From a virus (lineage: Duplodnaviria > Caudoviricetes): 64,000 nt of DNA. The translations under genes and the position numbers were made by a program. The stretch is taken from the IMG/VR virus record IMGVR_UViG_3300044693_000261, positions 39,349-103,348 of that record; one strand, given 5' to 3'. How positions within the stretch are numbered: position 1 is the stretch's first letter; each line of letters opens with the position of its first letter. This document shows positions 11,900 to 63,199 of this stretch, one piece after another. The notes beneath the pieces were generated by a model that made no database searches, was not told where the DNA came from, and saw only the letters and a list, made by a program, of their open reading frames with translations.

Positions 11900-11904
11900 A
11901 CCGC

Positions 11905-12996: not shown

Positions 12997-13017
12997 AGCG
13001 TGAGAAGGAGGGCCGAC

Positions 13018-17613: not shown

Positions 17614-17616
17614 ACT

Positions 17617-17637
17617 GGCTATGCTTTACCTGTTCCG
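17617..17637 (+). promoter_or_regulatory. Early-class promoter core (GGC-TATGCT-N6-GTTCCG)
   Basis: Motif match; -35 poor. Confidence 0.75.
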
Positions 17638-17651
17638 ACGAGAGGAGACCC

Positions 17652-19090: not shown

Positions 19091-19302
19091 GCACCCTTCC
19101 GCCGGTGGTGTGGCTGCTCTTGGCGGGCGTGGCCGCCGTGCTGATCCTGGCCGCTGTGGACGCCTACGAGCAGCGCAACGCCGAGCGGCACGAGGAGTTC
19201 CTGGCGACGCTGGCGCGCCTGCGTACGGCGACCACGGCGGGTAGGCACGCGCTGCCCGAGGATCCCCCGACCGAGACGATTCCGACCGTTGCCGTGTCGT
19301 AG
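19087..19302 (+). CDS. Small membrane protein
   Basis: ATGA overlap; N-terminal TM. Confidence 0.7.
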   Translation: MSTLPPVVWLLLAGVAAVLILAAVDAYEQRNAERHEEFLATLARLRTATTAGRHALPEDPPTETIPTVAVS

Positions 19303-19329
19303 GACACCGGCTATGCTTGGGTCGTTCCG
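19289..19329 (+). promoter_or_regulatory. Early-class promoter (TTGCCG-N17-TATGCT-N6-GTTCCG) with GTGTCGTAGGACAC
   Basis: Motif match; palindrome with one mismatch. Confidence 0.85.
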
Positions 19330-46795: not shown

Positions 46796-46805
46796 GGCGA
46801 ACCCC

Positions 46806-47048
46806 CTAGGAGTCGAACGGGCTGTCGGGTTTGGCGACCGAGCGGACCAGCGCCGAGAAGCCCGCCTCCAGGTGCGTGCGCGCGATGGCCAGCTGTCGGC
46901 GGTCGGCGGCGATCGGGATGTTGGCGTGCACCTTCCGCCACATCTCGGCCGCCGCCACCTCGGCCTGCTTGATCTCCCGGATGACGTCGACCGTGTCCTG
47001 GTCGAGGTCCCGGTAGCCGGGGATCTGACGGTGCTGGTTGTCCACCAT
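46806..47048 (-). CDS. acb2: Acb2-like anti-CBASS cyclic-nucleotide sponge
   Basis: DNQHRQIPGYRDL.Q ... RQLAIARTHLEAGFSALVRSVAKPDS matches Acb2 family termini as I recall them; TGATG coupling. Confidence 0.85.
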   Translation of the reverse strand: MVDNQHRQIPGYRDLDQDTVDVIREIKQAEVAAAEMWRKVHANIPIAADRRQLAIARTHLEAGFSALVRSVAKPDSPFDS

Positions 47049-47395
47049 CAGGTGGCCTGGAGCGTCGGCGTCAGGCCGTACGTGCCGGCCGAGCCGTAGG
47101 TCTCCGAGGCCGGCAGCGCGCCCGAGTAGTAGCAGGTGCCGCCCGAGGCCGCCGACCACAGCGACCAGTAGGTGATGGTGGTGCCGGCGGGGACGTTGAG
47201 CACGGCCTGGGATCCCGCCTTCGAGCCACCGGAGGACGACCCCCACGTGGTCTGCACGCGCGCGTAGGAGCCGCCGGAGACCTCGCCGGTGCTGGTGCCG
47301 CCCGGATCGGCGGTGTGCAACGCGATGTAGGTGGCGGCGGAGCCGATCGCGTCGACGGCCGCGTTGCGTGCCGTGCTGGTGAATGCGTTGGCCAT
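47048..47395 (-). CDS. Small virion structural protein (fibre/decoration-associated)
   Basis: ALHTADPG...EVSGGSYAR motif common in phage structural regions. Confidence 0.8.
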   Translation of the reverse strand: MANAFTSTARNAAVDAIGSAATYIALHTADPGGTSTGEVSGGSYARVQTTWGSSSGGSKAGSQAVLNVPAGTTITYWSLWSAASGGTCYYSGALPASETYGSAGTYGLTPTLQAT

Positions 47396-47410
47396 GGTCA
47401 GCCTTTCCGG

Positions 47411-48943
47411 TTACTTGAGCAGGATCAACGGCACGTAGCCGCCGCCGTCGATGATGCTGGCCAGCGCGCCGCCGTTGGCCGTTGGCCACGCCGAGCGGAA
47501 CGCGCCCCAGCTGCGCGGCACCGCCGGACCGCCGACCGCCGACAGCGCGCTGGAGTTCGCCATCACCTGGTAATGCATGCTCGGCGGCGTGTCATAGCCA
47601 TGCGTGGACCACTCGGCCGCAATGTAGAGCCCGGCGGCGGGCACCACGATCTGCGAGTCCAGCGGCAGCGACACCTTGCCGGCGGTCTCCCACAGGGTCG
47701 TCGGCGACGACGGAGTGGTGGTGGACAGCACCGCCGTGCCGGCCGCGTTCCACACCCGGAAGCCGTTGAGGTCCGCCGAGCCGGTGCCGTGGTTTCCGGC
47801 AGTGCGCACGTAGGTGAAGATCTCGGTATAGGTGTGCGGGCCGGGCAGCCAGATGACACAGCCCTGCTGCGAGTTGCCGCTGGTGCCCTGGTTGGTGTTG
47901 CTCGGGTCGTAGCTCGCGGCGACCGCTCCGTCCCAGTAGGACAGCGGCAGGGCGGTGCGCGGGTTGGTCAGCGCGCCACCCACCGCCGTGCTGATCGGCT
48001 TGTCGACGTCGGCGGTGTTGTCGACGTTGCCCAACCCCACGTCGGCCTTGGCCAGCGTGACCACGCCGGTGCGACCGGCGACCGAAGTGACCGGCGCGGA
48101 CTGGAGCGCCGAGCGGGCCAGCGCGAGGTCGGACTGCGCCGAGGTGGACAGGTCGGCCTCGGGGATACCGCCAACGGGCAGCGAGTACTTCGCGGCGATC
48201 GCGGCGGCCTGCGCGGTGGACACCGGCTTGTTGACGTCGCTGGTGTTGTCCACATTGGTCAGGCCAACGTCTGTTTTGGACAGCGTCACCGCGCCGGTGC
48301 GCCCCGCGACGGACTGCACGGGGCTGGCCGGGTAGGCGTGCTCGTGCCAGCTGGACAGCTGTGTCGGGTCGTCGGCGATGAGCACCCAGGTCGTGCCCAG
48401 GTCGGTGCGGATGGCCCAGTCGCCGCGCTGGCCGGTCAGCGCGAGCATGGCGGACTGAGTGGCCACCGCGCCCAGGAAGTCGGTCAGCGCCACCGCCGGC
48501 AACTGGGCCTGCGGGATCAGGCCGCCGATCAGGTCGGCCTTGGCCGCCAGCGCCGCGCCGAGGCCGGTCACGTCGCTCTGCGCGTGGGTGTGCGACAGCG
48601 CGGCCTTGCCGGCCAGGTCGGTGATCAGACCGGTGACGTCGGCTTCGGCATGCGTGTGGCTGCTGTTCGCCTTGGTCGCCAAACCCGAGGTGAGCGCGGC
48701 CGGCTGCACAGCGCTGGTGATCGTCGACCGGGTGCCCGAGTCCAGATCGGTGATCGGAATGCCACCCGAGGGCAGCGTGTACTTGCCGGCCAGCGCGGGC
48801 ACGGTCGGCGCGTCGGCGGTGCCGGCCAGGTCGCCGGCGAGCTTGATCCCACCCAGGGTGGTCGAGGTGGCCGGGCCGCCGCCGGCCGAGCCGGGCGGAC
48901 CCGCCGGGCCCTTGATGTTGCCGACCTTGACCCACGTCGCCAT
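47411..48943 (-). CDS. Fibre protein in head/neck region
   Basis: GNIKGPAG, HTHA..DVTGL x2, SVAGRTG.VTL.K.DVGL.NVDNT.D..KP.STA x2. Confidence 0.85.
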   Translation of the reverse strand: MATWVKVGNIKGPAGPPGSAGGGPATSTTLGGIKLAGDLAGTADAPTVPALAGKYTLPSGGIPITDLDSGTRSTITSAVQPAALTSGLATKANSSHTHAEADVTGLITDLAGKAALSHTHAQSDVTGLGAALAAKADLIGGLIPQAQLPAVALTDFLGAVATQSAMLALTGQRGDWAIRTDLGTTWVLIADDPTQLSSWHEHAYPASPVQSVAGRTGAVTLSKTDVGLTNVDNTSDVNKPVSTAQAAAIAAKYSLPVGGIPEADLSTSAQSDLALARSALQSAPVTSVAGRTGVVTLAKADVGLGNVDNTADVDKPISTAVGGALTNPRTALPLSYWDGAVAASYDPSNTNQGTSGNSQQGCVIWLPGPHTYTEIFTYVRTAGNHGTGSADLNGFRVWNAAGTAVLSTTTPSSPTTLWETAGKVSLPLDSQIVVPAAGLYIAAEWSTHGYDTPPSMHYQVMANSSALSAVGGPAVPRSWGAFRSAWPTANGGALASIIDGGGYVPLILLK

Positions 48944-48945
48944 GC

Positions 48946-49440
48946 TCACGCCTCCAGCGTGTAGAGGTCGCCCGAGTCGACGTCCAGGTACTGGTCGCCG
49001 ACGGCCGAGTTGGTGATCGTGCCGGGCGTTCCGTGGCCGATCCACAGATGGGCGGCCGGCGTGCGGCCGGGCTCGCGGGTGACCTCTCCGTCGACCCACA
49101 CGGGCCCCTCGGCGATGCGGGTGATCTTGCCGGCCTGGTCGGTCAACTCGATGTCGTAGACGCCGTCCACGAACGACCAGGCCGCCGAGTCCTCGGCGGG
49201 GACGGTGATCTGCACGTTGGTGGGGATGCTCGATCCGGCATTGGGCACCATGGCGACGTTGCCCGCCGGCACGCTCCACTCGTAGAGCACGGCGGGGTCG
49301 GTGCGGGTGGCCCGGATCTGGCCGCGCGCGGTCCAGCCGGTGAGATCCTGTGCGCCGCCGTCGAACTGGGCGAGCACCGGCCAGCGCCAGGACCAATCCT
49401 CACCCTGAACGATGGTCAGTCTCTGCTGCTTGCGGGGCAC
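48946..49440 (-). CDS. Fibre-attachment (BppU-like Ig-type) protein
   Basis: IVQGEDW, DLTGWTARGQIR, GVYDIEL, GDQYLD..SGDLY. Confidence 0.75.
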   Translation of the reverse strand: MPRKQQRLTIVQGEDWSWRWPVLAQFDGGAQDLTGWTARGQIRATRTDPAVLYEWSVPAGNVAMVPNAGSSIPTNVQITVPAEDSAAWSFVDGVYDIELTDQAGKITRIAEGPVWVDGEVTREPGRTPAAHLWIGHGTPGTITNSAVGDQYLDVDSGDLYTLEA

Positions 49441-49464
49441 GGGCGTGATCGTCGCACGGGGACG

Positions 49465-49497
49465 GGCGCGGGTCGGAGCAGGCGCGCCGACCCGCGC
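49465..49497 (-). terminator. Hairpin terminator
   Basis: GCGCGGGTCGG / CCGACCCGCGC stem. Confidence 0.6.
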
Positions 49498-49503
49498 TGT
49501 CGA

Positions 49504-50067
49504 TCACGCGTCGGCGGCCTGGTCCATCTCGGTTTCGGACAGCGGCTCGTGGTCGGGCTGGTTGTAGTCGACCAGCACCGTCGCCTTGTGCGCCTGCGTG
49601 GCGGCCTTGCCCACCCACTTCTCGTAGAAGTCCTTGCGGACCATCTGCCCCGCGCTCCAGAGCTTCTTCGTGCTCGGGGTCTGGGCGTACTGCGGGATGA
49701 ACCCGAGGTAGCCGTCCTCCTCGGCGACCACGTACTTGTGGGCGTCGGTGCGGTTGCCCAGGAAGCTGCCGTGCAGCGTCTCCGGGCCGCCGACGGTGAA
49801 CGGGTGGATGCCGGCGGCGCGGCTCACCTCGCGGTCCTGGGTGTTGCCGGAGTGGCGCGGGTCGCGCGGGTCGTTCTCACCCTCGCGGCCGGCGTCGGCC
49901 CCGGTCTCGACGTCGGCGTCGCCGGCGACCTGCTCGCTGTCGCCGGTCGGCTCGACCTTCTTGGCGGCGGCGGCCTTGCCGGTGGCCCGCTGCTGCCTGG
50001 ACTTGACGCCAGCAGCGGGGCCGGCGTCCTGGGTGTCTTCGGTGCTGCTGGTGGTCTCGTCAGCCAT
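49504..50067 (-). CDS. Hypothetical head-region protein
   Basis: ATG 7 nt after TAGCCT (-10-like, apparently leaderless). Confidence 0.8.
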   Translation of the reverse strand: MADETTSSTEDTQDAGPAAGVKSRQQRATGKAAAAKKVEPTGDSEQVAGDADVETGADAGREGENDPRDPRHSGNTQDREVSRAAGIHPFTVGGPETLHGSFLGNRTDAHKYVVAEEDGYLGFIPQYAQTPSTKKLWSAGQMVRKDFYEKWVGKAATQAHKATVLVDYNQPDHEPLSETEMDQAADA

Positions 50068-50077
50068 GCAGGTCAGG

Positions 50078-50866
50078 CTAGTGGGGTGAGGCCGAATTCA
50101 CGGGGGACGCGCCGCCGTGCACGTAGAACAGCCAGACCAGAGCGCCGGTGGCCAGGGTGGAGACGACCATCGTGATCGTGTTGCCGACGCCGGACGCCTC
50201 GAACCGCATCCATCGCGGCGTGCCGCACGGGTACCAGCGTTTTCCTCGGATGACGAACGGCCACATGATCGCGACACCGGCGTAGGTCAGACCATCGCCG
50301 GCGCAGTGCACGTAGCAGCCGATGGTGGCCATCAGGCCCAGCCAGCCGTATGCCTGTCCTGGCGGCAGCAGGAACCACGCGCCGCCGGCGAGCGCGGCCG
50401 CGACGACGATGTCGGTGAGGTGCCGGTTGCGCGGCGGCAGCGCCCGCAGCGCGAGCAGCGACAGGAAGAACAGCCAGAACAGGACCGCCCACACGCCGTA
50501 GCGGCCGGGCAACGCGGCCGAGGCGGACATGATGCCGCCGAACAGCCACGCGCCGGGCTGGGTGTGGGTAATGCCCCGGTGGGTGCCGTCGCGGTTCTGG
50601 TCGTAGCGGGTCTTGGTGGCGTGGTAGAGCCAGCCGGAGATGGCGGCCAGTCCGTGCGCGACGGCCTTGGTGAGGCCGCCGAGGCTGCGGGCGGCGGTCG
50701 CCTCGGGGTGGTCGAGGTCGGGCAGGACGGCCGCGCCGGCGCAGAGCATCGCGCCGACCAGTTGAGCTGGCACGGACAGGGGAGTGCCCAGCAGCGGCGG
50801 CAATGTGTGCATGACGAGGATGCCGGTCCCCAGCCCCTGTGTCGCATGCGTCGGTCCCATGACCAT
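50078..50866 (-). CDS. Membrane metal-dependent hydrolase (YdjM-like)
   Basis: MGPTHA, LPDLDH, HRGITH, H.AGDGLT..G motifs. Confidence 0.88.
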   Translation of the reverse strand: MVMGPTHATQGLGTGILVMHTLPPLLGTPLSVPAQLVGAMLCAGAAVLPDLDHPEATAARSLGGLTKAVAHGLAAISGWLYHATKTRYDQNRDGTHRGITHTQPGAWLFGGIMSASAALPGRYGVWAVLFWLFFLSLLALRALPPRNRHLTDIVVAAALAGGAWFLLPPGQAYGWLGLMATIGCYVHCAGDGLTYAGVAIMWPFVIRGKRWYPCGTPRWMRFEASGVGNTITMVVSTLATGALVWLFYVHGGASPVNSASPH

Positions 50867-50881
50867 GCGGAAACTCCTCTC

Positions 50882-50931
50882 CGGAACGTCTGGCCACGGT
50901 AGCGCAGACCGGCTATGCTTGTCGTGTTCCG
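50882..50931. promoter_or_regulatory. Divergent promoter pair: + GGC-TATGCT-N6-GTTCCG; - TACCGT-N8-GTTCCG
   Basis: GTTCCG on both strands, each followed by an RBS and start codon. Confidence 0.7.
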
Positions 50932-50953
50932 GAGGAGTGAAGGGGTCGACGCT

Positions 50954-51175
50954 ATGACTATGCAGAGCACGCAGAGCAAGCTCAAGGCCATGGGCGCATG
51001 GAGGATCGACGGCGGCTACCGCATCCCCGCCGAGCAGGGCGGCGACTGGATCGTCACCCGCAGCGCAGACGGGCACATCGGCTGGATCGTCGCCCGCGTC
51101 CACCGCCCGGACGCGGCGCTCAACGTCGGCCCCAAGCTGGGCGACCGGCTCGACTTCGTGGCGAGCTGGCTGTGA
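50954..51175 (+). CDS. Hypothetical protein (cassette 1)
   Basis: After promoter and RBS, opposite strand to structural genes. Confidence 0.75.
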   Translation: MTMQSTQSKLKAMGAWRIDGGYRIPAEQGGDWIVTRSADGHIGWIVARVHRPDAALNVGPKLGDRLDFVASWL

Positions 51176-51252
51176 CCGCCGACCAGGCCATCCTGCTGTT
51201 GCTCGCGGCCGCCATATTCGGCTACGCCGTGTTCCGCCTCTGCTGGGGATAG
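51172..51252 (+). CDS. 26-aa single-TM peptide (cassette 1)
   Basis: GTGA overlap; stop abuts the repeat. Confidence 0.5.
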   Translation: MTADQAILLLLAAAIFGYAVFRLCWG

Positions 51253-51300
51253 CGAGCAGCCCCCCGGCGAGGCGGTGCCGGGGGGCTGCTGCTCAAGGCG
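51251..51300. repeat. 50-bp direct repeat copy 1 / hairpin terminator
   Basis: 48/50 identical to 51836-51885. Confidence 0.9.
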
Positions 51301-51323
51301 CTGAAAAATCTTGACCTACCCCC

Positions 51324-51364
51324 TTACCCGACCTTGCGTCATCGGGTATGCTTGCGGTGTTCCG
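51324..51364 (+). promoter_or_regulatory. Early-class promoter (TTACCC-N17-TATGCT-N6-GTTCCG)
   Basis: Motif match. Confidence 0.8.
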
Positions 51365-51382
51365 GAAAGAGAGGCGAGACCG

Positions 51383-51601
51383 ATGACCAAGACCGAAGCC
51401 CGCGACATCATCGTCACCGACGTGCGCGTCTGGGCCCGCAAGGCCGGCAAGCCCGCGACCAAGTCGCTGGTTGAGGAGCGCATCAGCGAACTCGGTGGCC
51501 AGGGCTACGTCGGCACGCTCAAGCACGCGGCGGCGAACGCCACCACCGTGCTTGCCGTGTGGCGCGAGGTCATCGCCATCAAGCGACTGACGGGTGAGTG
51601 A
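51383..51601 (+). CDS. Hypothetical protein (cassette 2)
   Basis: GAGAGG RBS after promoter. Confidence 0.8.
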   Translation: MTKTEARDIIVTDVRVWARKAGKPATKSLVEERISELGGQGYVGTLKHAAANATTVLAVWREVIAIKRLTGE

Positions 51602-51833
51602 CGTGGGAGTGATGGTCAGGCGATGCCAGGGGCGCTACACACAGCGCCCACCGCACACCCAGTGCACGCGCGTCGGGACGTTCTTCGTCACGTACTTCAC
51701 CGACGGCAACGGCGCTAAGTGGTCCTGCGCCCAGCACCTCGCCCAGGTCGTGCGCGCGGTTGACGCCGCCGCCAGCGGCGACAGCGACCAGCTCGGCGGC
51801 AATGTGATCAAGGTGGTGGCGAGGTCGTCATGA
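51594..51833 (+). CDS. Small Cys/His Zn-binding protein (cassette 2)
   Basis: C...C...CAQH; stop abuts the repeat. Confidence 0.7.
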   Translation: MSDVGVMVRRCQGRYTQRPPHTQCTRVGTFFVTYFTDGNGAKWSCAQHLAQVVRAVDAAASGDSDQLGGNVIKVVARSS

Positions 51834-51835
51834 GC

Positions 51836-51885
51836 AGCGAACAGCCCCCCGGCGAGGCGGTGCCGGGGGGCTGTTGCTCAAGGCG
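51836..51885. repeat. 50-bp direct repeat copy 2 / bidirectional terminator after capsid gene
   Basis: 13-bp stem between convergent genes. Confidence 0.9.
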
Positions 51886-51890
51886 ACCCG

Positions 51891-53219
51891 TCAGCCGGTG
51901 CTGTGCTGAAGGTCGACCTTGACCATGCTCTCCGGGCGGAAAACGGCCAGACCCAGCCGCTCCTCGGCCAGCACGACGATCGCGTTGCGGACGAAGAAGT
52001 CCATGTGCTGGTCGGCGGTGCGGATGTTGGACTGCATCCGGTCGTAGATCTGCGCGCCGAGGCCGAACGCGCCGACCAGGGCGGTGCCCTCCGGGATGAC
52101 CGGGGTCGCGACGACCGGCAGCTGCCACAGCTGCCGCTGCGCGCCGGTGGTCACCGACACGGCCGCGACGTAGCGGCCCATGGAGTCCTTGGTCAGCTCC
52201 ATGCGCTCCCAGTCGTACGGGTGCACGACCACGCCGGTCGCCTCGTAGTTGGCGAGCACGACGCGGGTGGTGGCCCGCCGGATGGCGTCGATGTAGGTGT
52301 CGCCGGTGACGGGGGTCGCGGCACCCGGGTAGATCTGGATGTTGTCGGTGTTGAGGATGCCGAGCAGGTTCTCGCCCTGCCCGTCGCCGAGCAGCAGCTG
52401 GGCGTCCTCCTCCAGCCGCAGGCCGTACATCAGCCGGGTGTCGACGATGTTGCGCAGCGTCGGCTCGTCGTCCAGCGTGTTCCTGTGCGCGGGGATCCAG
52501 TGCGCGATGGTCTTGATCGGCGTGCTCTTGGTGCCGAAGTTGATGTTGCTCTTGGGCTTCAACCCAAAATTCGAATTGTCGTTGGTCCGCTCGGCGACCG
52601 TCGCGGCGGCGTTGTCGCCGGGGTTGACGAAGCCCAGCTCCTGGACGTACTCGATCATCACCGACGTGGTGCTGGCCGAGGGGAACAGGTCGCGCACGCG
52701 CGCCTGCCGCATCGGCGCGGCCACGACCGGGGCGCGTTCGACCGTGCCGAAGCCGGGGTGGGTGAACGTGCCGATGCTGCCCGAGTACAGGTCCTTGTAC
52801 TGGACTGCCGCCGTCAGCTCGACGTCGGAGACCTCGAAGGTGCCATTCATGGCACCGGACGCCTTGCGGTCCTTGAACTCGGCCGACTCGACGAACCGCT
52901 GGCCGAGGCTCTTGTACTCGACCGCCGTCGGCTGCTGCATCGCGGCCTGCTGCTGCGCGGCCAGCGACTGCCCCGCCGGCGCGTTCAGGTAGTCCTCGAT
53001 CCGGCTCTTGCCTTCGAGGCCGCCGATGACGTCCTGAACCTCGCGGGCCTGCGCCATGAGCGACTTGAACTCGGCGGAAGCCGTCTCGGAGACGACGATC
53101 CCGCCGTCTTCCTTCTTGAACCCCTCGCGGGTGATGGCGTTCAGCTTCTCGTTGAGACCGCCCAGCTGCTCGCGGGCCGCCTTCAGCAGGCTCTTGGTCT
53201 CGATCGTGTCGTGACTCAC
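51891..53219 (-). CDS. Major capsid protein (HK97 fold with N-terminal delta/scaffold domain)
   Basis: KTIAHWIP, QLLLGDG.GENLLGILN, HP.DW, AEERLGL.V.RP. Confidence 0.95.
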   Translation of the reverse strand: MSHDTIETKSLLKAAREQLGGLNEKLNAITREGFKKEDGGIVVSETASAEFKSLMAQAREVQDVIGGLEGKSRIEDYLNAPAGQSLAAQQQAAMQQPTAVEYKSLGQRFVESAEFKDRKASGAMNGTFEVSDVELTAAVQYKDLYSGSIGTFTHPGFGTVERAPVVAAPMRQARVRDLFPSASTTSVMIEYVQELGFVNPGDNAAATVAERTNDNSNFGLKPKSNINFGTKSTPIKTIAHWIPAHRNTLDDEPTLRNIVDTRLMYGLRLEEDAQLLLGDGQGENLLGILNTDNIQIYPGAATPVTGDTYIDAIRRATTRVVLANYEATGVVVHPYDWERMELTKDSMGRYVAAVSVTTGAQRQLWQLPVVATPVIPEGTALVGAFGLGAQIYDRMQSNIRTADQHMDFFVRNAIVVLAEERLGLAVFRPESMVKVDLQHSTG

Positions 53220-53345
53220 GCTGGTCTTTCCTTCCGTGCGCGATCCGATGTGTGCTGGACCCGCGCCGGTCAGTACCAAGCGCGCATGCCCGGAAGGGTA
53301 TTCGTGGTGATCGTCGAGAAGTCGGAACCGTAACGGCGTGTCGAA

Positions 53346-53389
53346 ACGACGGACGGCCCCAGGGTCGGGGGACCGGGGCCGTCCGTCGT
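53346..53389 (-). terminator. Hairpin terminator after the giant protease gene
   Basis: ACGACGGACGGCCCC / GGGGCCGTCCGTCGT 15-bp stem. Confidence 0.75.
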
Positions 53390-53401
53390 GGAGCGTAAGT
53401 G

Positions 53402-56400
53402 TTACTGCCCGGTAGGCGCGGCAGGCTTGGCGGCCTGAAGGCTCCAGCCGTCGGCCGGGATCTCCAAGGTGTAGACGGTGTCGGTGCCGGTGGTCGAGTT
53501 GTCGTCGACCGCGCGGAACGTCGCTGTGATCGAGCCGTCCGGGTTGACGCTGACCGAGTCGGTGGACTGGTAGGTCTTCTTGAGCTGCAACGGCCCGTCG
53601 TTGTGTCCCGGAATCGAGACGCCCGGGAACGTCAGTGTCCAGCCGTTGCCCGAATCCACCGACTTGCTGATCTGCACACCGCCCGAGCGCGCCTCGTCGG
53701 CCAGCTTCTTCGCGAACGCCACACGCTGCTCGTACTGCCGATCGGAGTCCGAGGTCAGCCGCGCCGGCGTGACGTCGACCTTGCTGATCTTCGCCTCACC
53801 GGTGTTGCCCGCGCTGGCCAGCCGCTCCACGTTCGACCAGTTCTGCGGGTCGGCGTCGTGCATCACCTGGTCGGACATGGCTTTCAGCGCCGCGCCCATG
53901 TCGCCGGTCTTGGTCAGCTTGCTCGGGTAGTAGTTGTCGGTGCTGTTCGGGTCCTTGACTCGGTAGCTGATCGTCGTGCCCTTGTGCTTCTCGGCCAGGT
54001 CGGCCAGCGTCGAGGCCACCGTGTACGGGTGGGTCGGGGCCATGGTGGTCGCCCACGCCGCGATCGAGCGCAGCTGGTTGGCGTTCTTCTCGTCGGTCCG
54101 GTTGACGAAGTCGCCCCGCGACAGCGCCAGACCGGGCGAGTCCAGGCCGGTCGCCTCGGTGTAGGGCGCGGTGTTCAGCGACACGACCCGCACATCGCTG
54201 GGCACATCGGCCTGCGCCGCGTTCGGGGTGTCGGCCAGCAGTGCCCGGGTCGCGCCCGGCCCCTGCGCGATGGCCTCGTCCAGCTTCGCGCGGTTGACGA
54301 CGACCCCGGCCAGGCCGATGCCCAGCTGCTCCTTGGTGTCCCTGATCTCTTGAACGGCCCCACTGCCGTCGCCGGACCAGTCGATGGCGCTGCCGGTACC
54401 CGGGTTGACGGCCGTTTCGTAGTAGCGACCGGCGCGGTCGGCCACGTCCTGGGTGGCGAAGCTGCCGATGCGCTTGCCGGACGGCGCATGCGTCAAACTG
54501 CCATCCGGCGTGGTGAAGAACCAGCCGCCAGCCGACAGTCGCGCACCCTTCCACCTGCTGTCGTCGGTGATCATCTCATTGAGATAGTTCTGGTGCTGCT
54601 GGTAGGCGTCCTGCTTGAGCGAGTCGGGGATGTTGCCTTTGCGCCACGCCTCGCGCACATCGTCGATGCTGTTGAACTGCGACTGTGCGGGCGCGTCCAG
54701 CAGGTTGAGCTGTCCACCGGCGACGGCGTCGATCACCTGCGTCTGGTTGTCCAGGGCTCGCTGCGCTTCCGGGGTGGTCGCCTCCGGGGTGATCGAGGCA
54801 GCCTTGGCCGCGCGCGCCGACGGAGCCTTGACGCGTCGAGTGGCCGCGCCGGAGCGCTGCTTGGGCGGGGTCGCGTTCGGCGCACCCAGCTGGGCGTCGA
54901 GTGCGGCGCGGGCCTTGGTGACCGCCGACTCCAATGCCGCATCGGTAGGCGTGGCCTCGGTCAGCGCCTTCGCCTTCTGCGCCGTGTCCGGGACGTCCTG
55001 GCCCTGCGCCAGTGGCGCGATCGCGTGCGAGACGGGGTTGCCGCTGTAGGCGTCGGCCATGGGCGACCACTTGCCGGGACTGGACTCGACCCACTTCGGC
55101 ATGGTGACGCGGTCGCCGGTGACTGAGAGCGTGACCGGCGTCTGGGCGGGCGCGCCCTCCTCGACCGCGCGGATCTGGAACAGGCCGGCGCTGGCCGGAC
55201 GCGTCTTGGCCGAGCTGGTCAGCCCCATCGAGTTGCGGCCGCCGCCGTAGGTCTGCCCCTCGGCGGTGCCGAGGATTTTGAACACGCGGGCATACGGCGT
55301 GGTCGAGGTGGGGTTGCCGCTCACCGGCGACGTGTCGTACATCATGAAACGCTGACCGGGCTGGGCCTCGAACAGCGCGGCGGTGCCGACAGGCGTGGTC
55401 GAGTAGCTGTGCCTGATCTCGTTGGCGATGCCACGCAGGTGCAGCGAGCCACGGCTGGGCGCGTCACCGTTGACCAGCTGCTCCGTGTCGCCGGTGCGCG
55501 CGCCGCCGCCGTAGCGGGCGGACAACTCGTCGGCGCGGCGCTCCAGCATGGCGATCGCCTTGTCGGGTGCGCCGAGCATGTAGACGTTGCGTGCGCCGTT
55601 GGCCACGCGCATCGTCTCGGCGTCGTCGGCCAGCTGCTCGGGCGTGCGGTCCTCGGTGGCGTAGCGGCCGCGCTGCGGCTTACCGTCGTGCAGCAGCAAT
55701 CCGAGGTTGCCGATGCGGGTGGTCAGCGCCCGGTCGCCGGAGGCGTAGTTGGGGAACACCTTGGCCATGTCGGACGACCGGCTGAAGTTCAGCTGATACG
55801 CGGTGGTCTGGACCAGCGGGTTGGTGGTGTCGCCGTTGGCCACGCGCTGCGCGACCACGTTGGCCACCCCGAACGCGCCCAGCTCGGTCGGGCTCAGGCC
55901 GCTGTCCTTGACCATGCCCATCGGGTCGGTGCCGGCGCGCGACCAGTCGATGGTCGAGCCGCTGGGCCCGGTGCCGCGCTCCAGCGCCTGCATGACGTCG
56001 CGGGCGTCCTTATTGGACAGGGCGGCCTCGGGCATACGGATGTACGCGCCATTTTCGCTGGTGAAGATCGTGTAGCCCTTGCGGTCACTCGTGCGCGCCG
56101 CGAACAGGCCGCCGCCGGGCGAGAGCATCGCCGTGTCCCACTGGATCGTGTTGGGACGCGAGGTGAACTGCTCGACACCGGCCAGGTGCTCGCGCACGTC
56201 GGCGATCGACTTGTACGGCGTCGACACCGGCTGGTCGGTCAGTGGCGTCGGCTCGGTGAAGTCGCGCATGCCGGTAACCGGGTTGACGCTCGGCGACTGC
56301 GCGGCCGCCAGCGCGGCGGCCTTGCGGATCGTCGCGGTCCGCGCGGCCGGCTCGGGCGCGGGCGGCGCGGTCGGCAGCGTCTCGCCCTCGGGCACGCCGC

Positions 56401-59400
56401 CGTACTGCTTGGCGTAGGCGTCCGCGAGCCCGCGCGCGATCTCCCGCTGGGCGTCCTCGGGGCTGACGGCTGTGCCGTCCTGGAGATCCACGGGCACGCC
56501 GGACTGGTCATACAACCGAGACGACCAGGGGATCATGCCGCGCTTGTCGGGGGTGCCGTAGGTGGCCACGTAGTTCTGCCCGACCACCATCTGGGTGCCG
56601 CCAGGGCCGCCGGCGAAGTACTGCCCGGCGGGCTGGTCGACGACGGCCGGGGTGGCCCAGGTCGCCGGCTTGTTGATCAGCGCCGGCGCGTTCGGCGTGG
56701 TGGTGGTCGCGGCGACCTCGGGCGTCGACGCGGCCGCGCCAGGGGTCCCGGCGGCAGCACCCGCGCCGCCGCCGCCGGGGGCGTTGGGGGCATTCGGCGC
56801 GTTCGGCATGCCCGGCTCGCCCGGGGTCGGCACACCGGGCTGGTCGGTGGGGGCGGGGCCGCCGTAGGTGACCGGGTCGAGGTTGCGGGAGCGCATCTCG
56901 GCGTCGATCTGGCCCAGCAGGCTGCGCAGCTTGTCGCGCTCCAGCCGCTTGGCGGCGCGCCGGTCTCGCGCCGAGGCGTTGCGCTTGTCGCGGGTGTCGC
57001 TGCGCAGGTTGCCGGCGAGTTCGCGGACCTTCTCGGCGTCCGGGTGGCTGGAGTCGACCTCGGTGAGCAGGTCGCGCAGGCCCTGGGCGTGCTCGCTGTC
57101 GGTCTTGGACCGGCGCAGGCTCGACTCCAGTCGGGCGCGCGCGGCGGCCGCCCGGTTCTCGTCGCCGGCGTCGATGGCCTCGGCGTAGTCCTCGGCCGCG
57201 CCAGCAAGGCCCGCCTTCGGCTTGGGCGTGGCCGGAACCGCCGGTGCCTGCGGGGCCTCGGGCGCGGCCGGCGCGTTCGGCTCGCCGGCGGGCGGCACCT
57301 TGGCCACCTCGTGGGTCGCCGCGCCGCCCGGCTCATTCGGTGCGGACGGCGCGGCCGGCGCGCCGGTGGGTGGCGTGACGGTGCCGGTGATCGGGCTGGC
57401 GTTGGCGGCGACCGCGTCGCGACGGTGGATCTCGTTCTGGAGTTTCAGCTCATCGACGACGTCCTGTCGGGTCGCGCCGAGCTGGTCGTTTTCCATGCCG
57501 GTCAGGTCCAGGGTGCCGGCGTCGGCCTGCTGGAGCAGTTCCGACACACGGTCCTGCCGGTCGGCGACGTCGGTGGTGACCTCCAGCTGGCCCTCGGGGT
57601 CCTCCGAGAGCCCCATGGCGGCGTCGGCCACGTTCTGCATCTGGTCCAGCTGCTCGGGGCTGATCTGCTCCTCCGGCGACGGACCGGCGTTGACATCGGG
57701 CTGGCCGGGCTCCTGTGATGCGCCTGCGCCGACTGGCCTGTTCGCTTGCGCGCCGAGCGCATCGGCGGCCTGCTGGTCGCCATTGGCGGCGCGTTCCTGC
57801 CGGCGGCGATTGATCTCAGTGCCGAACACGTCGCGCGCCATCTTCGCATCGTGATACGCGGCGGAGTTGCGGGTCTCGCCGGCGGCGGACACATCGCGCA
57901 GTTTCTGGTGAGCGGCGGTGTGCTCGGCCTGCAACTGGGCGTCGGACAGCGCGCCGACGTTGTTCATGTTCCCGGTCGGCTTGTACGGCTCGCCGCCGTT
58001 GTCGTCGCCGCCAGCCTGCGGCGCGCCGCCGCCGGGCGTCCAGTCGCGCAGCTTCTGCACGTACGCGCCGTTGTCGCCGAGGTCGGCCCCGCTGTGCTCG
58101 ATGTGGTCGGCCATCTCGGCGAGGTTGGCCTTGACGTCCTCGGGCTTGACGTTCGCCGGCATCTCGCCCGGGTCGCGGCCGGACGCGAGCGCGCTGGCCA
58201 CGTTCTCGGTCATGCTGCGGGTGGCCGGATCCTCGTCGCGCAGCAGCGCGGTGCCAGCGAGGCTGGCCGCGTGCCCGGCCTTCCCGCCGGGCCCCTTGGC
58301 CATCATGGTGTCGTTGTTGATCCGGTCGGCCATCAGGGCGTGGTCGACCTTGGGTGCCGGCGCGCCGCCCTTGCCGCGCCGCTTCTGCTCAGCCTCGACG
58401 GCCTTCAGGTGCTGCTCGTGCTTGGCGTGGTTGCGACCGTCGGAGACAACCGAGTTGCCCAGCTGGCTGCGGTTGCGGTGGATGTTGGCGGCTTCCTGTG
58501 CCAACTCGTCGTTGGACGCGCTCTTGAGCCAGTCGCCGCGCCCCCGGTTGGAGTGGGTGCGCTGCCGGGTCGCCTCGGGCGTGATCACGCGCGAGCGGTG
58601 TCCCGGCGCGGGCTTGCCGGTAGCGACCTCGGGCGCGTTCGGTGCCTCCGGAACCTTCGGGGCGGCCTTGGCCGGTGTGGGCTTCTTGCCCGTCGGCGCG
58701 GGCTTGTTCAGCTCGCGCATGGCGGTCGGGTGGTCCAGGCCAGCCTGACGGTGCTGGATGTACTGGTTGCGCTTACGCGAGTTGCGCACCTGCATGCGCT
58801 GCGAGTGCGGCAGTTCGGCCATCTCGCGCTCGGGGTTGTCCTGCCAGCGCTGCTGTGTCGTCATGCCGGCGCGCCGGAGGATGTTCTCCGTGCTGTTGAC
58901 GTTCTCCGTCGGGTTGGGGGTGCCCGCGCGGTGCTTGTCGAGCAGCGCCTGCCGGTGTCGCTCGCCCTCGGGGGTGAGGATCACGCCGCCATCCGAGTGA
59001 GGAGTTGCGAGCCCTCGATCGACAAGGCCGCCGGACACGGTGGGATGCGGCGTAGTGCGCAGACTGGCATCAGGGGTGCCGGCGGCCCCGTTCTGCGCCG
59101 CAGGCTTGGCCACCATCAATGCATGCTGCATCTGCGGCGACAGCGTCTGGAGCGGCTTGTCCGGCGCACTCGGCGCGTTCGGCGCACCGCCGGCGGACCG
59201 CTCGGCGATGGCGTCCTTGACCAACTGGTGCGGCGCACTGACCTGGCCGTCGGTGGCGCGGTTGGCCAGCTCGCGATCCAGCTGGTTCAGTTCGTCGTCG
59301 CTGTAGCCGCGTAGCGTCGCCTTGGCGGTGCTGGGCTGCATCCCGACGATGCGGCTGGCCAGCCCGTGAACGTCCGGCGTGGGGCCGCCGACGGCCTTGG

Positions 59401-60220
59401 CGGCGTCGACAACGGCCTGCGCCGAGGGCTTCTCGTGGGTCACACCCATGTCCTGGGTGACCGGCTTGCCCTCGGAACGCAGCGCGTGCGCCTTGGGCCC
59501 CATCGGTTTCATGCCCAGCCGGATCGGGGTGCCGTAGGGCAGGCCCCAAAACTCCTGATCGCGGACGTAGCGCGCCTTGGTCTCGGTCTGCTCGGGCCGG
59601 ATCCCGGTGTACTCCATGCCGTCGCGGTCGCCGGACTTCACCGACAGCAGGTGGGCGTACTTGTTCGCGCCGTGCAGCACGTCCGACCACTCGTACCAGT
59701 CGAGGTCGGTGATGTAGCGAACGCCGCCACGCTTGCGAGCCTGGCGCACCTTGTAGCCGATCGAGAAGTTCTGTTCGTCCTTGTAGAACTTGGCGTTGGC
59801 GTACGCGGTCCGACCGGCCTCGGTCTCCAGGTTGTACTGCGCCTTGACGTACAGCGCGCCGGCCGAGGCGGGCCACGGCTCACCGGTGACCGGCACTGTC
59901 TTGGGCAGGCGCGGGTCGCCCGGCTGCCACTCCTCGCGCACGATGGCCTTGGCGTACGGCGTCTTCCAGTCGTGCGCCGAGACACCCTTGGCTTTCATCT
60001 CGGCCAGGGTGCGCCGGAACGCATTGGGCACGATGACGTCGCCCACGTCGTCGACGACGCCGGTCACGGCGGCCAACAGCTCGACGTCGGCGACCAGGTT
60101 GCCGTCCTCGTCGCGGTACGGGCCGCCAGGAGTGTCGAGCACCCCCGTGGCCTCCGCCGGGTTGCCGCCGGGGTACTGCTTGAACTCGATGTCGTCGCCG
60201 CGATCGAGCGTGTGCGTCAT
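53402..60220 (-). CDS. HK97-family prohead protease fused to about 2050 aa of cargo (probable internal virion polyprotein)
   Basis: DDVGDVIVPNAF, AHDW (His), FSIGY (Ser), YEWS.V..GAN; directly upstream of capsid. Confidence 0.9.
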   Translation of the reverse strand: MTHTLDRGDDIEFKQYPGGNPAEATGVLDTPGGPYRDEDGNLVADVELLAAVTGVVDDVGDVIVPNAFRRTLAEMKAKGVSAHDWKTPYAKAIVREEWQPGDPRLPKTVPVTGEPWPASAGALYVKAQYNLETEAGRTAYANAKFYKDEQNFSIGYKVRQARKRGGVRYITDLDWYEWSDVLHGANKYAHLLSVKSGDRDGMEYTGIRPEQTETKARYVRDQEFWGLPYGTPIRLGMKPMGPKAHALRSEGKPVTQDMGVTHEKPSAQAVVDAAKAVGGPTPDVHGLASRIVGMQPSTAKATLRGYSDDELNQLDRELANRATDGQVSAPHQLVKDAIAERSAGGAPNAPSAPDKPLQTLSPQMQHALMVAKPAAQNGAAGTPDASLRTTPHPTVSGGLVDRGLATPHSDGGVILTPEGERHRQALLDKHRAGTPNPTENVNSTENILRRAGMTTQQRWQDNPEREMAELPHSQRMQVRNSRKRNQYIQHRQAGLDHPTAMRELNKPAPTGKKPTPAKAAPKVPEAPNAPEVATGKPAPGHRSRVITPEATRQRTHSNRGRGDWLKSASNDELAQEAANIHRNRSQLGNSVVSDGRNHAKHEQHLKAVEAEQKRRGKGGAPAPKVDHALMADRINNDTMMAKGPGGKAGHAASLAGTALLRDEDPATRSMTENVASALASGRDPGEMPANVKPEDVKANLAEMADHIEHSGADLGDNGAYVQKLRDWTPGGGAPQAGGDDNGGEPYKPTGNMNNVGALSDAQLQAEHTAAHQKLRDVSAAGETRNSAAYHDAKMARDVFGTEINRRRQERAANGDQQAADALGAQANRPVGAGASQEPGQPDVNAGPSPEEQISPEQLDQMQNVADAAMGLSEDPEGQLEVTTDVADRQDRVSELLQQADAGTLDLTGMENDQLGATRQDVVDELKLQNEIHRRDAVAANASPITGTVTPPTGAPAAPSAPNEPGGAATHEVAKVPPAGEPNAPAAPEAPQAPAVPATPKPKAGLAGAAEDYAEAIDAGDENRAAAARARLESSLRRSKTDSEHAQGLRDLLTEVDSSHPDAEKVRELAGNLRSDTRDKRNASARDRRAAKRLERDKLRSLLGQIDAEMRSRNLDPVTYGGPAPTDQPGVPTPGEPGMPNAPNAPNAPGGGGAGAAAGTPGAAASTPEVAATTTTPNAPALINKPATWATPAVVDQPAGQYFAGGPGGTQMVVGQNYVATYGTPDKRGMIPWSSRLYDQSGVPVDLQDGTAVSPEDAQREIARGLADAYAKQYGGVPEGETLPTAPPAPEPAARTATIRKAAALAAAQSPSVNPVTGMRDFTEPTPLTDQPVSTPYKSIADVREHLAGVEQFTSRPNTIQWDTAMLSPGGGLFAARTSDRKGYTIFTSENGAYIRMPEAALSNKDARDVMQALERGTGPSGSTIDWSRAGTDPMGMVKDSGLSPTELGAFGVANVVAQRVANGDTTNPLVQTTAYQLNFSRSSDMAKVFPNYASGDRALTTRIGNLGLLLHDGKPQRGRYATEDRTPEQLADDAETMRVANGARNVYMLGAPDKAIAMLERRADELSARYGGGARTGDTEQLVNGDAPSRGSLHLRGIANEIRHSYSTTPVGTAALFEAQPGQRFMMYDTSPVSGNPTSTTPYARVFKILGTAEGQTYGGGRNSMGLTSSAKTRPASAGLFQIRAVEEGAPAQTPVTLSVTGDRVTMPKWVESSPGKWSPMADAYSGNPVSHAIAPLAQGQDVPDTAQKAKALTEATPTDAALESAVTKARAALDAQLGAPNATPPKQRSGAATRRVKAPSARAAKAASITPEATTPEAQRALDNQTQVIDAVAGGQLNLLDAPAQSQFNSIDDVREAWRKGNIPDSLKQDAYQQHQNYLNEMITDDSRWKGARLSAGGWFFTTPDGSLTHAPSGKRIGSFATQDVADRAGRYYETAVNPGTGSAIDWSGDGSGAVQEIRDTKEQLGIGLAGVVVNRAKLDEAIAQGPGATRALLADTPNAAQADVPSDVRVVSLNTAPYTEATGLDSPGLALSRGDFVNRTDEKNANQLRSIAAWATTMAPTHPYTVASTLADLAEKHKGTTISYRVKDPNSTDNYYPSKLTKTGDMGAALKAMSDQVMHDADPQNWSNVERLASAGNTGEAKISKVDVTPARLTSDSDRQYEQRVAFAKKLADEARSGGVQISKSVDSGNGWTLTFPGVSIPGHNDGPLQLKKTYQSTDSVSVNPDGSITATFRAVDDNSTTGTDTVYTLEIPADGWSLQAAKPAAPTGQ

Positions 60221-60292
60221 GGGCGTTGTCCCTCCCGGCCTGGTCAGCCGTGATCGTATGAGCGACCGGGAGGGCCTTCGGGCAGGCGCGCC

Positions 60293-62197
60293 CTAGATCC
60301 CGTCGAACAGGCTGGCGGGCATGTTCAGCGCGCCGGTTTGCGCGGTGCCCACCGTGCCGTTCGATCCCAGGCCGTTGTCGTCGTCCTGGGTATTCTTGCC
60401 CTGTTCCGGTCCTCCGTCAACCAGATCGCCGTCGCCACCCAGCAGCCAGCGCTTGTCACGCCGCAGCACATCGGCCCAGTCGTCGTCGCCGATGTCGGTC
60501 TGGACGTCGCCGCCGTTCTGGTCGCCCGGGTCGCCAGCCGAGACGTCGAGCAGGCCGAGGCGGTCGGTTTCCAGCATCAGGTCGTCCAGCGACCCGGGCG
60601 CGGCCTTGAATTCGGCGGTCAGTCGGTCGAGGGCCTTCAGCTCCAGCGGGGTGATCACCACCTCGGCCGACTTGATCCGCAGACCCTGGTCCGCCTCGAC
60701 CACCGGGCCTTCGTCGGCGTCCCCCTCGACGCCGTCGCCGTCATCCTCGGTTTCGTCGTTGTCGAGGAGGGCGTTGCCGAATTCGTCCATCTCGCCCGGG
60801 TCGATCAGCAGCAGCGCCACCGGGTCGACGCCGTCGAACATGGCCGCCTCGTCGTCGTCAGGCATGCCGGGGTCGTACTGCTCCGGATCATCGCTGTCGC
60901 CGAGCAGCGGCATCGGCTGCGGCAACTCCTTCTTGCCCAGCTTGCCGCCGTCCTCGTGGCCTGGCCACACCCCCAGCGCGAGGTGATGGATGTTCGCGGT
61001 CAGGCCCGACAGGATGTGCGGATCGTGCACGTACTTGGCCAGCTGGCGACGCAGCCGGTAGAAGTCGTGAGGCTCGCCCGGCCGCCACTTCGCCCGCGCT
61101 ACCGGGTTGAACGCCCAGTAGCGGCGCAGCTTGGCCGCGCGCGGATCCGGCGAGGCCACCTTCACCTCGATACCGTTCTCGGCGCTCTTGCCCGACGGCT
61201 CGAAGTCGATCGAGGAGGCGTCGAGCATGTGCGTCGCGCCGAGCGCCTTGGCGCGCTTCTTGATGTGGGCCCGCAGCTCGGCCCGCTTGCCCTCCGGGGC
61301 CTCGCCGTAGGCCCGCAGCGCGTTCTTCAGGTCCTCGTGGTTGGCGATCGGGTAGGAGCCGTCCGGCATGGCGGTGCCGGCCTTCGCCATCTGCTTGCGC
61401 TTCTCGGGCGTGAACTTCCGCTTGTACTCGACGCTCTCGAACTCGCCGGCCTTGATCTCGCGGATCACCCTGTGCTCGATGCCAGGGTGCAGGGTCGTGC
61501 ACAGGTCGCCCAGGTCGTTGTGCTCGCACAGCGCCGTCTTGGTCTCGACGTCATGCGTCAGCGCGTACAGATCGGGCCGCAGGTCAGCGCAGACCGCGCC
61601 ACAGGCCGACTTCTCCTCACCGGACACGGGCCACACGTCGTGGTCGGTGTCGCCCTCCGGCGTGGTGTCGTCGTCGCCGTCACTGTCCGGGTCGACACCC
61701 AGCGGGAAGTCCTGCACGTCGTCGCCGACGGCGTAGCGCAGCTTGTCGAAGCGCACCGGACCGCCGTAGCTGACCTGGCTGGGATCCAGGCCGTAGCCGG
61801 CGGTGACATGCGGCAGGTAGCCGGGATGCTGTGCCGGCAAGTCGGGGTAGTCGTCGCTGCCGTTGATCGCGTCGGTGAGGTAGTCGCGCAGGTCCGACAG
61901 GTCGCCCGAGCCGCCGATCAGGTGCACGACGCAGGGGTCCATGTCGCCGTCCGGGCCGCCGGTCGGGTTGAAGTGCGCGGGGCCGACCACGTGGGCGTCG
62001 ATGGGTTGCACGCCGGGCGCGAGGCTGGCCACCAGGTTGCCGAGGTTGGCGCGCTGATCGTCACTCCAGCCGTTCACGTCGTCGTCGTCGCCGAGATACA
62101 GCAGCGTGGCGTGCAGCTCGCTGGGGTCCTCGCCGCCGTCGACCGCGAGGTTGCCCAGGCTGTCGTCGTCGGGCACGAGCGCGATCATTCCGCCCAT
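60293..62197 (-). CDS. Head-region multidomain protein with N-terminal 2H phosphoesterase (Acb1 / 2'-5' RNA ligase superfamily)
   Basis: LHATLLY and PHVTAGY HxT motifs; then AMPDGSYPI and KLRRYW...H...LGVWPG modules, acidic tail. Confidence 0.85.
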   Translation of the reverse strand: MGGMIALVPDDDSLGNLAVDGGEDPSELHATLLYLGDDDDVNGWSDDQRANLGNLVASLAPGVQPIDAHVVGPAHFNPTGGPDGDMDPCVVHLIGGSGDLSDLRDYLTDAINGSDDYPDLPAQHPGYLPHVTAGYGLDPSQVSYGGPVRFDKLRYAVGDDVQDFPLGVDPDSDGDDDTTPEGDTDHDVWPVSGEEKSACGAVCADLRPDLYALTHDVETKTALCEHNDLGDLCTTLHPGIEHRVIREIKAGEFESVEYKRKFTPEKRKQMAKAGTAMPDGSYPIANHEDLKNALRAYGEAPEGKRAELRAHIKKRAKALGATHMLDASSIDFEPSGKSAENGIEVKVASPDPRAAKLRRYWAFNPVARAKWRPGEPHDFYRLRRQLAKYVHDPHILSGLTANIHHLALGVWPGHEDGGKLGKKELPQPMPLLGDSDDPEQYDPGMPDDDEAAMFDGVDPVALLLIDPGEMDEFGNALLDNDETEDDGDGVEGDADEGPVVEADQGLRIKSAEVVITPLELKALDRLTAEFKAAPGSLDDLMLETDRLGLLDVSAGDPGDQNGGDVQTDIGDDDWADVLRRDKRWLLGGDGDLVDGGPEQGKNTQDDDNGLGSNGTVGTAQTGALNMPASLFDGI

Positions 62198-63138: not shown

Positions 63139-63158
63139 GGTGTTCTCCCTGTCTCGAA

Positions 63159-63199
63159 CGGAACGGGTCAAGCTTAGCCATGTCGCAAGGTTGGGTCAA
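63159..63199 (-). promoter_or_regulatory. Early-class promoter (TTGACC-N17-TAAGCT-N6-GTTCCG)
   Basis: Reverse-strand motif; spacer closely resembles the 1245 copy. Confidence 0.85.

Follow-up and report, generated by a model that had tools for sequence, protein, structure and literature searches.

A head-module 2H phosphoesterase domain and an Acb2-family sponge gene in the structural arm of a high-G+C phage genome

The Acb2-family gene and its cassette

The 64,000-nucleotide stretch of DNA analysed here (the window) corresponds to bases 39349-103348 of a 103,348-bp IMG/VR virus record (IMGVR_UViG_3300044693_000261) with an estimated completeness of 91%. Two of its minus-strand genes are the subject of this work: a gene of 80 amino acids (aa) for an Acb2-family sponge at 46806-47048, and a 634-aa gene at 60293-62197, the first 167 residues of which (61697-62197) form a 2H phosphoesterase domain (PF13563). 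In an earlier sequence-only reading these had been taken for an Acb2-like sponge and an Acb1-like nuclease, together a two-pronged arrangement against CBASS (antiphage signalling based on cyclic oligonucleotides) built into the head-assembly region. The G+C content of the window is about 70%, and a third-codon-position G+C filter was used to tell real genes from the numerous spurious open reading frames (ORFs). Replication-type genes on the plus strand fill 1-24 kb, and 24-64 kb holds a structural module on the minus strand; the window represents the structural arm of a myovirus-type phage genome of about 103 kb with 70% G+C. The capsid protein is 45-49% identical to the capsids of Brevibacterium phage Cantare and of Gordonia GMA6/DalanDe-type myoviruses, and the hosts of the nearest cultured relatives are actinobacteria. 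End repeats were looked for in the linear record and none were found. The sister phage used for comparison is contig L120 (103,791 bp).

The family of the proposed sponge was confirmed by hidden Markov model (HMM), sequence, fold and binding residues, and the membership of the 80-aa protein in the Acb2 family can be considered settled. The ORF matched PF24729 (Acb2_Tad1_hairpin) over the full profile (1-58) with E 1.1e-12 and 48.4 bits at a cut-off of 27, and a phmmer search of the PDB returned PaMx33 Acb2 (8H2J/8IXZ) with E 4e-10. In the AlphaFold2 (AF2) model the mean predicted local distance difference test score (pLDDT) was 87; Foldseek ranks 1-9 were all Acb2 (8H2J, 8H2X; template modelling score, TM, 0.71-0.74) or T4 Vs.4 (7UQ2), and the next match had E = 2. 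In PaMx33 Acb2 the cyclic dinucleotides are held by Y11/K26 and cyclic triadenylate (cA3) by R67/T74 (Cao et al., PMC10312549). Residues Y12, K27, R51, A54, I55 and T58 of the window protein aligned with Y11, K26, R67, A70, I71 and T74 of PaMx33 Acb2, i.e. all four ligand-contacting residues are retained (minus strand; Y12 at 47013-47015, K27 at 46968-46970, R51 at 46896-46898, T58 at 46875-46877). Among 97 aligned close homologues Y12 and K27 were invariant, and R51 and T58 were at least 90% conserved. The ligand range of the protein is predicted from these residues. The closest homologues in cultured phages, at most 50% identical, were those of Erwinia, Yersinia and Pseudomonas phages. NCBIfam, searched with the 80-aa protein and the 2H protein, contained no model for either.

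The orthologue in the sister phage (L120:10001-10243) is located correspondingly, with an identical start/stop overlap, and is 76% identical to the window protein, with a ratio of nonsynonymous to synonymous substitution rates (dN/dS) of 0.40. The Acb2 gene is under purifying selection between the two phages. The sister protein carries a His at the position of T58, which corresponds to the cA3-contacting T74 of PaMx33 Acb2, and the trinucleotide pocket may on this account differ between the two phages.

The placement of the Acb2 gene among virion fibre genes, with translational coupling, held good as proposed. Its ATG shares one base with the stop codon of the upstream 115-aa gene (TGATG), as it does in the sister phage, and its translation is coupled to that head/fibre gene. 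The upstream gene, 47048-47395 on the minus strand, codes for a Gp80-like head or fibre protein (Pfam PF23140 Gp80, podophage fibre I, E 1.4e-15; PHROG 240 'head protein', E 8e-30), and the gene next upstream, 47411-48943, contains phage-tail-repeat (PTR) domains. These genes belong to a lineage-specific minus-strand cassette at 44147-49440, in which a 164-aa gene, a PTR-repeat fibre gene of about 510 aa, the Gp80-like gene, the Acb2 gene and a gene for an 882-aa Ala/Thr-rich repeat protein follow each other in an order identical in L120. The 5.3-kb cassette is an insertion that separates a conserved 187-aa gene from the head-tail adaptor gene. It was found in the window phage and its sister only; in the next-closest relatives, L098-L103, the 187-aa homologue stands directly before the adaptor homologue, and since the flanking genes are adjacent there, Acb2 rides in a lineage-specific insertion and not in an ancestral slot of the head module.

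A late position in the structural module has a precedent: in the characterised phage JBD67 acb2 is flanked by the major head gene and the head-tail adaptor gene, and the slot of acb2 in Leptolyngbya phage Lsp-JY19 is similar. The capsid-neck slot is not new for Acb2. A conserved two-gene cassette of the Gp80-like gene and Acb2 was also considered and was ruled out, the gene before Acb2 in Lsp-JY19 being unrelated. The 882-aa protein encoded directly after Acb2 (44147-46795, minus strand) is rich in Ala, Thr and Ser, has 844 aa in the sister phage and gave no match in Pfam or PHROG.

The 2H domain, its carrier and the head module

The 2H domain was located where the sequence-only reading had put it, in the gene just upstream of that for the putative prohead protease, with an intact catalytic tetrad and within the head-assembly module. 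It matched PF13563 (2'-5' RNA ligase/2H superfamily) with E 7e-8 and 33 bits at a cut-off of 27. The tetrad consists of two HxT motifs on the minus strand, H29 and T31 at 62105-62113 and H130 and T132 at 61802-61810; in an alignment of 62 sequences H29, T31 and H130 were invariant and T132 was at least 90% conserved. The AF2 model showed a clear 2H fold with pLDDT 93, and Foldseek agreed on the family. The VIA Z scores of the model were 14.8 with TT0787, 14.6 with the Deinococcus cyclic phosphodiesterase (CPDase), 13.4-13.7 with Usb1, 13.3 with E. coli LigT, 12.3 with rotavirus VP3, 11.3 with the phage BCSR5 phosphodiesterase (PDE), 10.8 with Acb1 (7T26; 22% identity) and 10.1 with the penguinpox cyclic GMP-AMP (cGAMP) PDE. 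No description of the mid-ranking BCSR5 enzyme (PDB 9Q2G) was found in the literature.

Profile alignment by hhalign connected the 2H profile with T4 Acb1 over 101 columns spanning both HxT motifs (E 1.5e-4) and with Cantare gp9 over 151 columns (E 1.1e-4), compared with 13 columns for E. coli ThpR. One of 66 related 2H proteins reached the Pfam Acb1 model (E 6e-4). The genome was also searched in six frames with two Pfam models, Acb1 and PF13563, and neither gave a match; the Acb1 result was given no weight because the same search had missed PF13563, the known positive. The claim of an Acb1-like nuclease stood as far as the 2H fold and the HxT/HxT tetrad are concerned; the Pfam Acb1 model was not matched and the nearest folds were of the LigT/ThpR type. 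Judged by its sequence and its model, the 2H domain is an active-looking enzyme of its own clade, the kinship of which with Acb1 is at the superfamily level only. The RefSeq label of T4 gene 57B, which is Acb1 (L127:5953-6411), is still 'RNA ligase', and the same misleading label is found on Cantare gp9 and on the JGI homologues of the window's 2H protein.

The carrier gene starts with an ATG at 62197 after a purine-rich stretch. Its product comprises the N-terminal 2H domain, a variable linker, two conserved modules which are common to head-assembly proteins, and an acidic tail; the architecture of a 2H domain followed by the two modules is common to about 50 database proteins. ClpP- and S78-type proteases carry the central module, too, at the C-terminus, and capsid proteins at the N-terminus; it is also present in MuF proteins. 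This distribution suggests that it may join the procapsid. A carrier module of about 65 residues (residues ~257-330; 61200-61430, minus strand) was 50-60% identical to those protease, MuF and Phage_capsid_4 regions.

In one scan of viral contigs at least 343 were found to encode relatives of the 2H domain, and 80 of these were fetched and examined. In nearly all 80 loci the domain lies inside a 360-1,640-aa protein encoded downstream of the portal. Of 66 2H proteins compared with Pfam, six contained MuF, four portal families, and one each zeta toxin and ADP-ribosyltransferase, so that a MuF or portal domain was recognised in 10 of the 66. In 34 of the 80 loci the 2H domain is fused to a module of about 220 aa labelled head maturation protease by PHROGs, and P0070 is an S78 protease-2H fusion by Pfam. 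The ~220-aa module (alignment A6; e.g. L043:11486-12145) contains invariant His, Ser and Asp residues. Both HxT motifs were invariant or nearly so across the two sets of 62 and 66 diverse sequences while the nearby linkers varied. A stand-alone 2H gene is present in phage Cantare between the portal and protease genes. Head-associated 2H domains have been proposed to be packaged and injected, as RNases or as destroyers of nucleotide signals (Iyer et al.; PMC5512222, PMC9503650), and according to Iyer et al. 2017 these versions never associate with RNA ligases. Head-packaged 2H enzymes were already predicted in 2017 and 2022.

The head genes of the window phage are arranged in two parts. The first part runs from the terminase through an accessory block, the portal and a MuF-like protein to a 112-aa gene, and the second from a DpdA-like gene through a 258-aa gene, the 2H carrier and a 2272-aa protease fusion to the major capsid protein. 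The joining of the 112-aa gene to the DpdA-like gene crosses the ends of the linear record and is assumed; given this joining, the 2H carrier occupies the slot between the portal and capsid genes. The carrier gene ends 72 bp before the start of the gene for the 2272-aa head protein (53402-60220, minus strand), which has a probable N-terminal prohead (capsid maturation) protease domain. The N-terminus matched TIGR01543 (HK97 prohead protease) with E 2.4e-6 and 27.7 bits, below the cut-off of 59, and PF04586 with E 0.022; residues 38-216 were 43-47% identical to annotated Gordonia and Brevibacterium capsid maturation proteases (E 1e-25 to 1e-27). The gene of the HK97-type major capsid protein lies at 51891-53279 on the minus strand (PF05065, Phage_capsid, E 1.2e-40).

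A short motif, E-x-K, was enriched in two of the head proteins. The carrier contains eight copies against 1.5 expected, a count reached in none of 500 shuffles, and the capsid protein six, none of them beyond residue 140; for that N-terminal part 1.3 are expected (0 of 500 shuffles). The motif is absent from the tape measure, sheath, fibre and 882-aa proteins. Three motifs of the carrier are conserved: E194-K196 (61610-61618), E218-K220 (61538-61546) and E344-K346 (61160-61168), all on the minus strand. The sites after residues 196, 220 and 346 were kept in 31 of 36, 40 of 42 and 43 of 43 homologues, respectively, in linkers which are otherwise variable. The Gordonia phage capsid alignments start at residue 124, immediately past E121-x-K123, and the first 140 residues of the capsid protein look like a delta-domain chopped by the protease. 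The N-terminal E-x-K motifs of the capsid protein mostly precede Ser. From the sequences we infer that E-x-K is the cleavage motif of the maturation protease of this lineage, with the carrier among its substrates; the conservation and enrichment of the motif suggest that the carrier is cut by the head protease.

A promoter-like site was detected at 63150-63205 (minus strand), upstream of the 258-aa, 2H-carrier and protease genes, with a TTGAC-type -35, a TAAGCT -10 and GTTCCG six bases on. The consensus to which it belongs (a TTGAC-type -35, a TATGCT-type -10 and GTTCCG six bases later) recurs at about ten plus-strand sites in 135-19324, in front of genes of the replication arm. The Acb2 gene lacks a promoter of this kind and is coupled to the preceding gene. 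For the 258-aa gene, an ESM Atlas look-up yielded no usable match. A simple promoter and terminator scan of 44-64 kb gave nothing above shuffles. Two further copies, at 50926 and 51359 on the plus strand, face small plus-strand ORFs between the capsid and YdjM-like genes. The latter, a gene for a YdjM-type membrane-bound metal-dependent hydrolase (50078-50880, minus strand; PHROG 20744, and PF04307 in the sister phage), has the capsid gene on one side and the fibre cassette on the other. Two genes upstream of the 2H carrier lies a DpdA/queuine tRNA-ribosyltransferase-like gene (63196-63942, minus strand; PHROG 1279, E 2e-77), the ORF of which may extend past the record end. This gene, which is part of the head module, hints at 7-deazaguanine DNA modification.

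Association of the two genes and weighing of the readings

In the window phage the Acb2 and 2H genes are 13 kb apart and do not form one unit. Their association was examined in 35 long 2H-bearing records, seven of which contained PF24729 above the cut-off. In six of the seven, and also in L057 and L133, an Acb2-family ORF shares the strand of the 2H gene and stops no more than a few bases from where that gene starts, the genes being ordered portal, Acb2-type gene, 2H fusion and, further downstream, capsid. PF24729 was the commonest Pfam family (7) in a set of 64 small ORFs lying upstream of 2H genes. In the tree of the 2H domain the adjacency appeared in three separate clades (L043; L017; L046/L055/L057/L069/L072), with differing Acb2 subtypes. 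In L017 an 82-aa Acb2/Tad1-hairpin gene (9742-9990; PHROG 1454) sits exactly between the portal and 2H fusion genes, and its close relative L023 is without this inserted gene. Among the 80 best Acb2 loci in viral contigs, only one had a 2H gene nearby, which confines the link to high-GC lineages. The adjacency is guilt by association, real but lineage-limited. No description of Acb2 genes directly adjoining 2H genes or 2H-protease fusions was found in the papers that could be searched.

The reading preferred here is that the window phage carries a sponge and, probably, a capsid-targeted 2H degrader of nucleotide signals as two separate counter-measures; on the sequences and models it is given a probability of about one half. 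The 80-aa protein would form the usual oligomer and sequester cyclic dinucleotides in the Y12/K27 pocket and cyclic trinucleotides in the R51/T58 pocket. The C-terminal modules of the carrier would take the 634-aa protein into the procapsid, where the maturation protease could cut it at the conserved E-x-K sites and release a 2H enzyme of about 20 kDa. The freed enzyme would open the phosphodiester bonds of cyclic or 2'-5' oligonucleotide signals via a 2',3'-cyclic phosphate intermediate, acting either late in the producing cell or, after ejection, in the next one. An anti-signalling role of the 2H domain is plausible; others had proposed it before, and the adjacency to Acb2 genes in three clades lends it new support. 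Prohead proteases can activate CBASS (2026 preprint, PMC12991175), in agreement with what had been supposed about late phage products as triggers. Of the two-pronged head-region arrangement, the sponge and the position of the 2H domain in the head module stood; the distance between the genes and the placement of Acb2 in a lineage-specific insertion do not fit it. An extension to a large group of high-GC phages, in which 2H nucleases would be loaded into procapsids via protease-, MuF- or portal-type modules, released at E-x-K sites in the window lineage and directed at cyclic-oligonucleotide signals, with Acb2-type sponges repeatedly recruited in front of them, is tentative.

A number of results, given here together with the alternatives they bear on, weigh against the preferred reading. 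The more distant 2H fusions mostly lack E-x-K (L043 has none, and the L046 clade has few and none near the 2H domain). The ~220-aa fusion module gave nothing in Pfam, in a PDB profile search or in hhalign with the window protease, its protease label resting on PHROGs. The one promoter that could be recognised upstream of the 2H gene shares its consensus with those of the replication arm, which makes late co-expression of the two genes with the head proteins an assumption. It is doubtful, with some chance of being true, that both genes are real and yet no coordinated pair, the portal-protease and capsid-neck slots gathering accessory genes and the co-residence being coincidental. Such an explanation would account for the 13 kb between the genes, the lineage-specific cassette around Acb2, the closest capsid relatives beyond the sister (G002, G007 and G011), which keep 2H with no Acb2 detected, and the 28 of 35 2H-bearing records without PF24729 above the cut-off (two more matched weakly). 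It would fit as well with the scarcity of 2H among the best Acb2 loci, with the early small-gene arrays in which other close Acb2 homologues are found, and with the DUF1360, DUF7316, HD and transglycosylase genes that share the slot upstream of 2H. It does not readily explain why, of the families in that slot, PF24729 is the commonest and adjoins 2H, as different Acb2 subtypes, in three clades. That the 2H domain is a structural or scaffolding part with no catalytic relevance is very improbable: the domain is always embedded in head-morphogenesis proteins, but the near-invariance of the HxT motifs among variable linkers and the existence of stand-alone 2H versions speak against it.

The remaining alternatives concern the targets. 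The 2H domain may act on RNA, either as a ThpR/LigT-like 2',3'-cyclic phosphodiesterase healing the ends left by RNase defences or as a Usb1-like RNase delivered with the DNA, with Acb2 as an unrelated accessory. The best structural neighbours are indeed LigT/ThpR-type proteins (Z 14.6-14.8; 13.3 for E. coli LigT) and Usb1 (13.4-13.7), i.e. Z 13-15 versus 10.8 for Acb1, PF13563 was the sole family listed by hmmscan at E <= 10 with no match to the Acb1 model PF23474, and the sequence of the domain found no match in the PDB; an RNase role is also one of the two options of Iyer et al. 2017 for head-associated 2H domains. This explanation is nonetheless rather unlikely. The 64 non-structural proteins yielded 16 Pfam families, from which RNA ligase, polynucleotide kinase, RtcB and Tpt1 families were absent, and this weakens an RNA-repair role; Iyer et al. 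saw no RNA ligase association of these 2H versions, the hhalign match was far longer with T4 Acb1 than with E. coli ThpR, and in three separate clades the 2H gene is directly adjoined by an Acb2-family gene. That the 80-aa sponge is aimed chiefly at a different signal, such as the 3' cyclic ADP-ribose (3'cADPR) of Thoeris, in place of CBASS nucleotides is still less likely. Some Acb2 homologues bind the Thoeris signal and not those of CBASS, ten homologues from four clades of the family tree inhibit type I Thoeris (PMC12393519), and in the sister phage T58 is replaced by His; against this stand the retention of all four cGAMP/cA3-binding residues of PaMx33 Acb2, the invariance of Y12 and K27 in the 97 homologues and the inhibition of CBASS by most tested Acb2 homologues.

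If the 2H domain degrades immune nucleotides, it would represent a second and much more widespread phage 2H anti-signalling class besides Acb1, as judged from the number of viral contigs in the one scan, and the first such enzyme physically tied to head assembly. In the many relatives where 2H is fused to a putative prohead protease, the antidote would be part of the same polypeptide as the class of protein that triggers CBASS. A nuclease beside or fused to the protease, together with an abutting sponge, would then be a testable route to protecting the CBASS-triggering step (PMC12991175), and the computational prediction of injected 2H effectors from 2017 and 2022 would be open to bench test, cultured relatives such as that with Cantare gp9 being available. 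Should the substrate of the 2H domain be RNA instead, the Acb2 gene would be one more of more than 4,000 known family members, an ordinary finding.

Comparison with known systems

The window sponge shares the Pfam family and the two-helix hairpin fold with PaMx33/JBD67 Acb2 and T4 Vs.4, and like them it is small and stands alone. As in JBD67, its gene lies between the major capsid and head-tail adaptor genes. It is shorter than its known counterparts (80 versus ~93 aa) because the loop between the helices is shorter, and unlike them it is carried in a fibre-gene cassette of a 70% G+C phage with actinobacteriophage relatives.

The 2H domain resembles Acb1 (T4 gene 57B; Erwinia phage FBB1) in its fold and its HxT/HxT tetrad, with ~22% of 128 structurally aligned residues identical. 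Next to T4 acb1 lies the head-internal protein gene ipI, and the window domain is likewise in a head context. The spacing of the catalytic motifs is ~100 residues in the window domain versus ~69 in Acb1, and the LigT-like topology with extra helices is unlike that of Acb1. Moreover, Acb1 is a 150-aa stand-alone enzyme with a C-terminal lid, whereas the window 2H forms the N-terminal part of a 634-aa head protein. Both acb1 and acb2 are present in T4, and a phage with both Acb1 and Acb2 is in this sense already known.

The internal head proteins and Alt of T4 are encapsidated, protease-processed and injected effectors encoded with head genes. The route proposed for the carrier (targeting to the prohead, cleavage by the protease and ejection with the DNA) would be the same; there is no homology, and the route of the carrier is deduced from motifs and fusion partners. 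The polyvalent and MuF- or portal-fused 2H proteins of Iyer 2017/2022 are similar in their fusions to MuF, portal and protease domains and in having no RNA ligase partner. The window carrier differs from them: it is encoded separately, has modules of its own and contains conserved E-x-K sites. LigT/ThpR, rotavirus VP3, MHV ns2 and the penguinpox cGAMP PDE belong to the same superfamily and have the same fold as the window domain (Z 10-15); with 8-20% identity and another genomic setting, the likeness is at the fold level only. The viral 2',5'-phosphodiesterases and the penguinpox PDE destroy nucleotide second messengers of the host.

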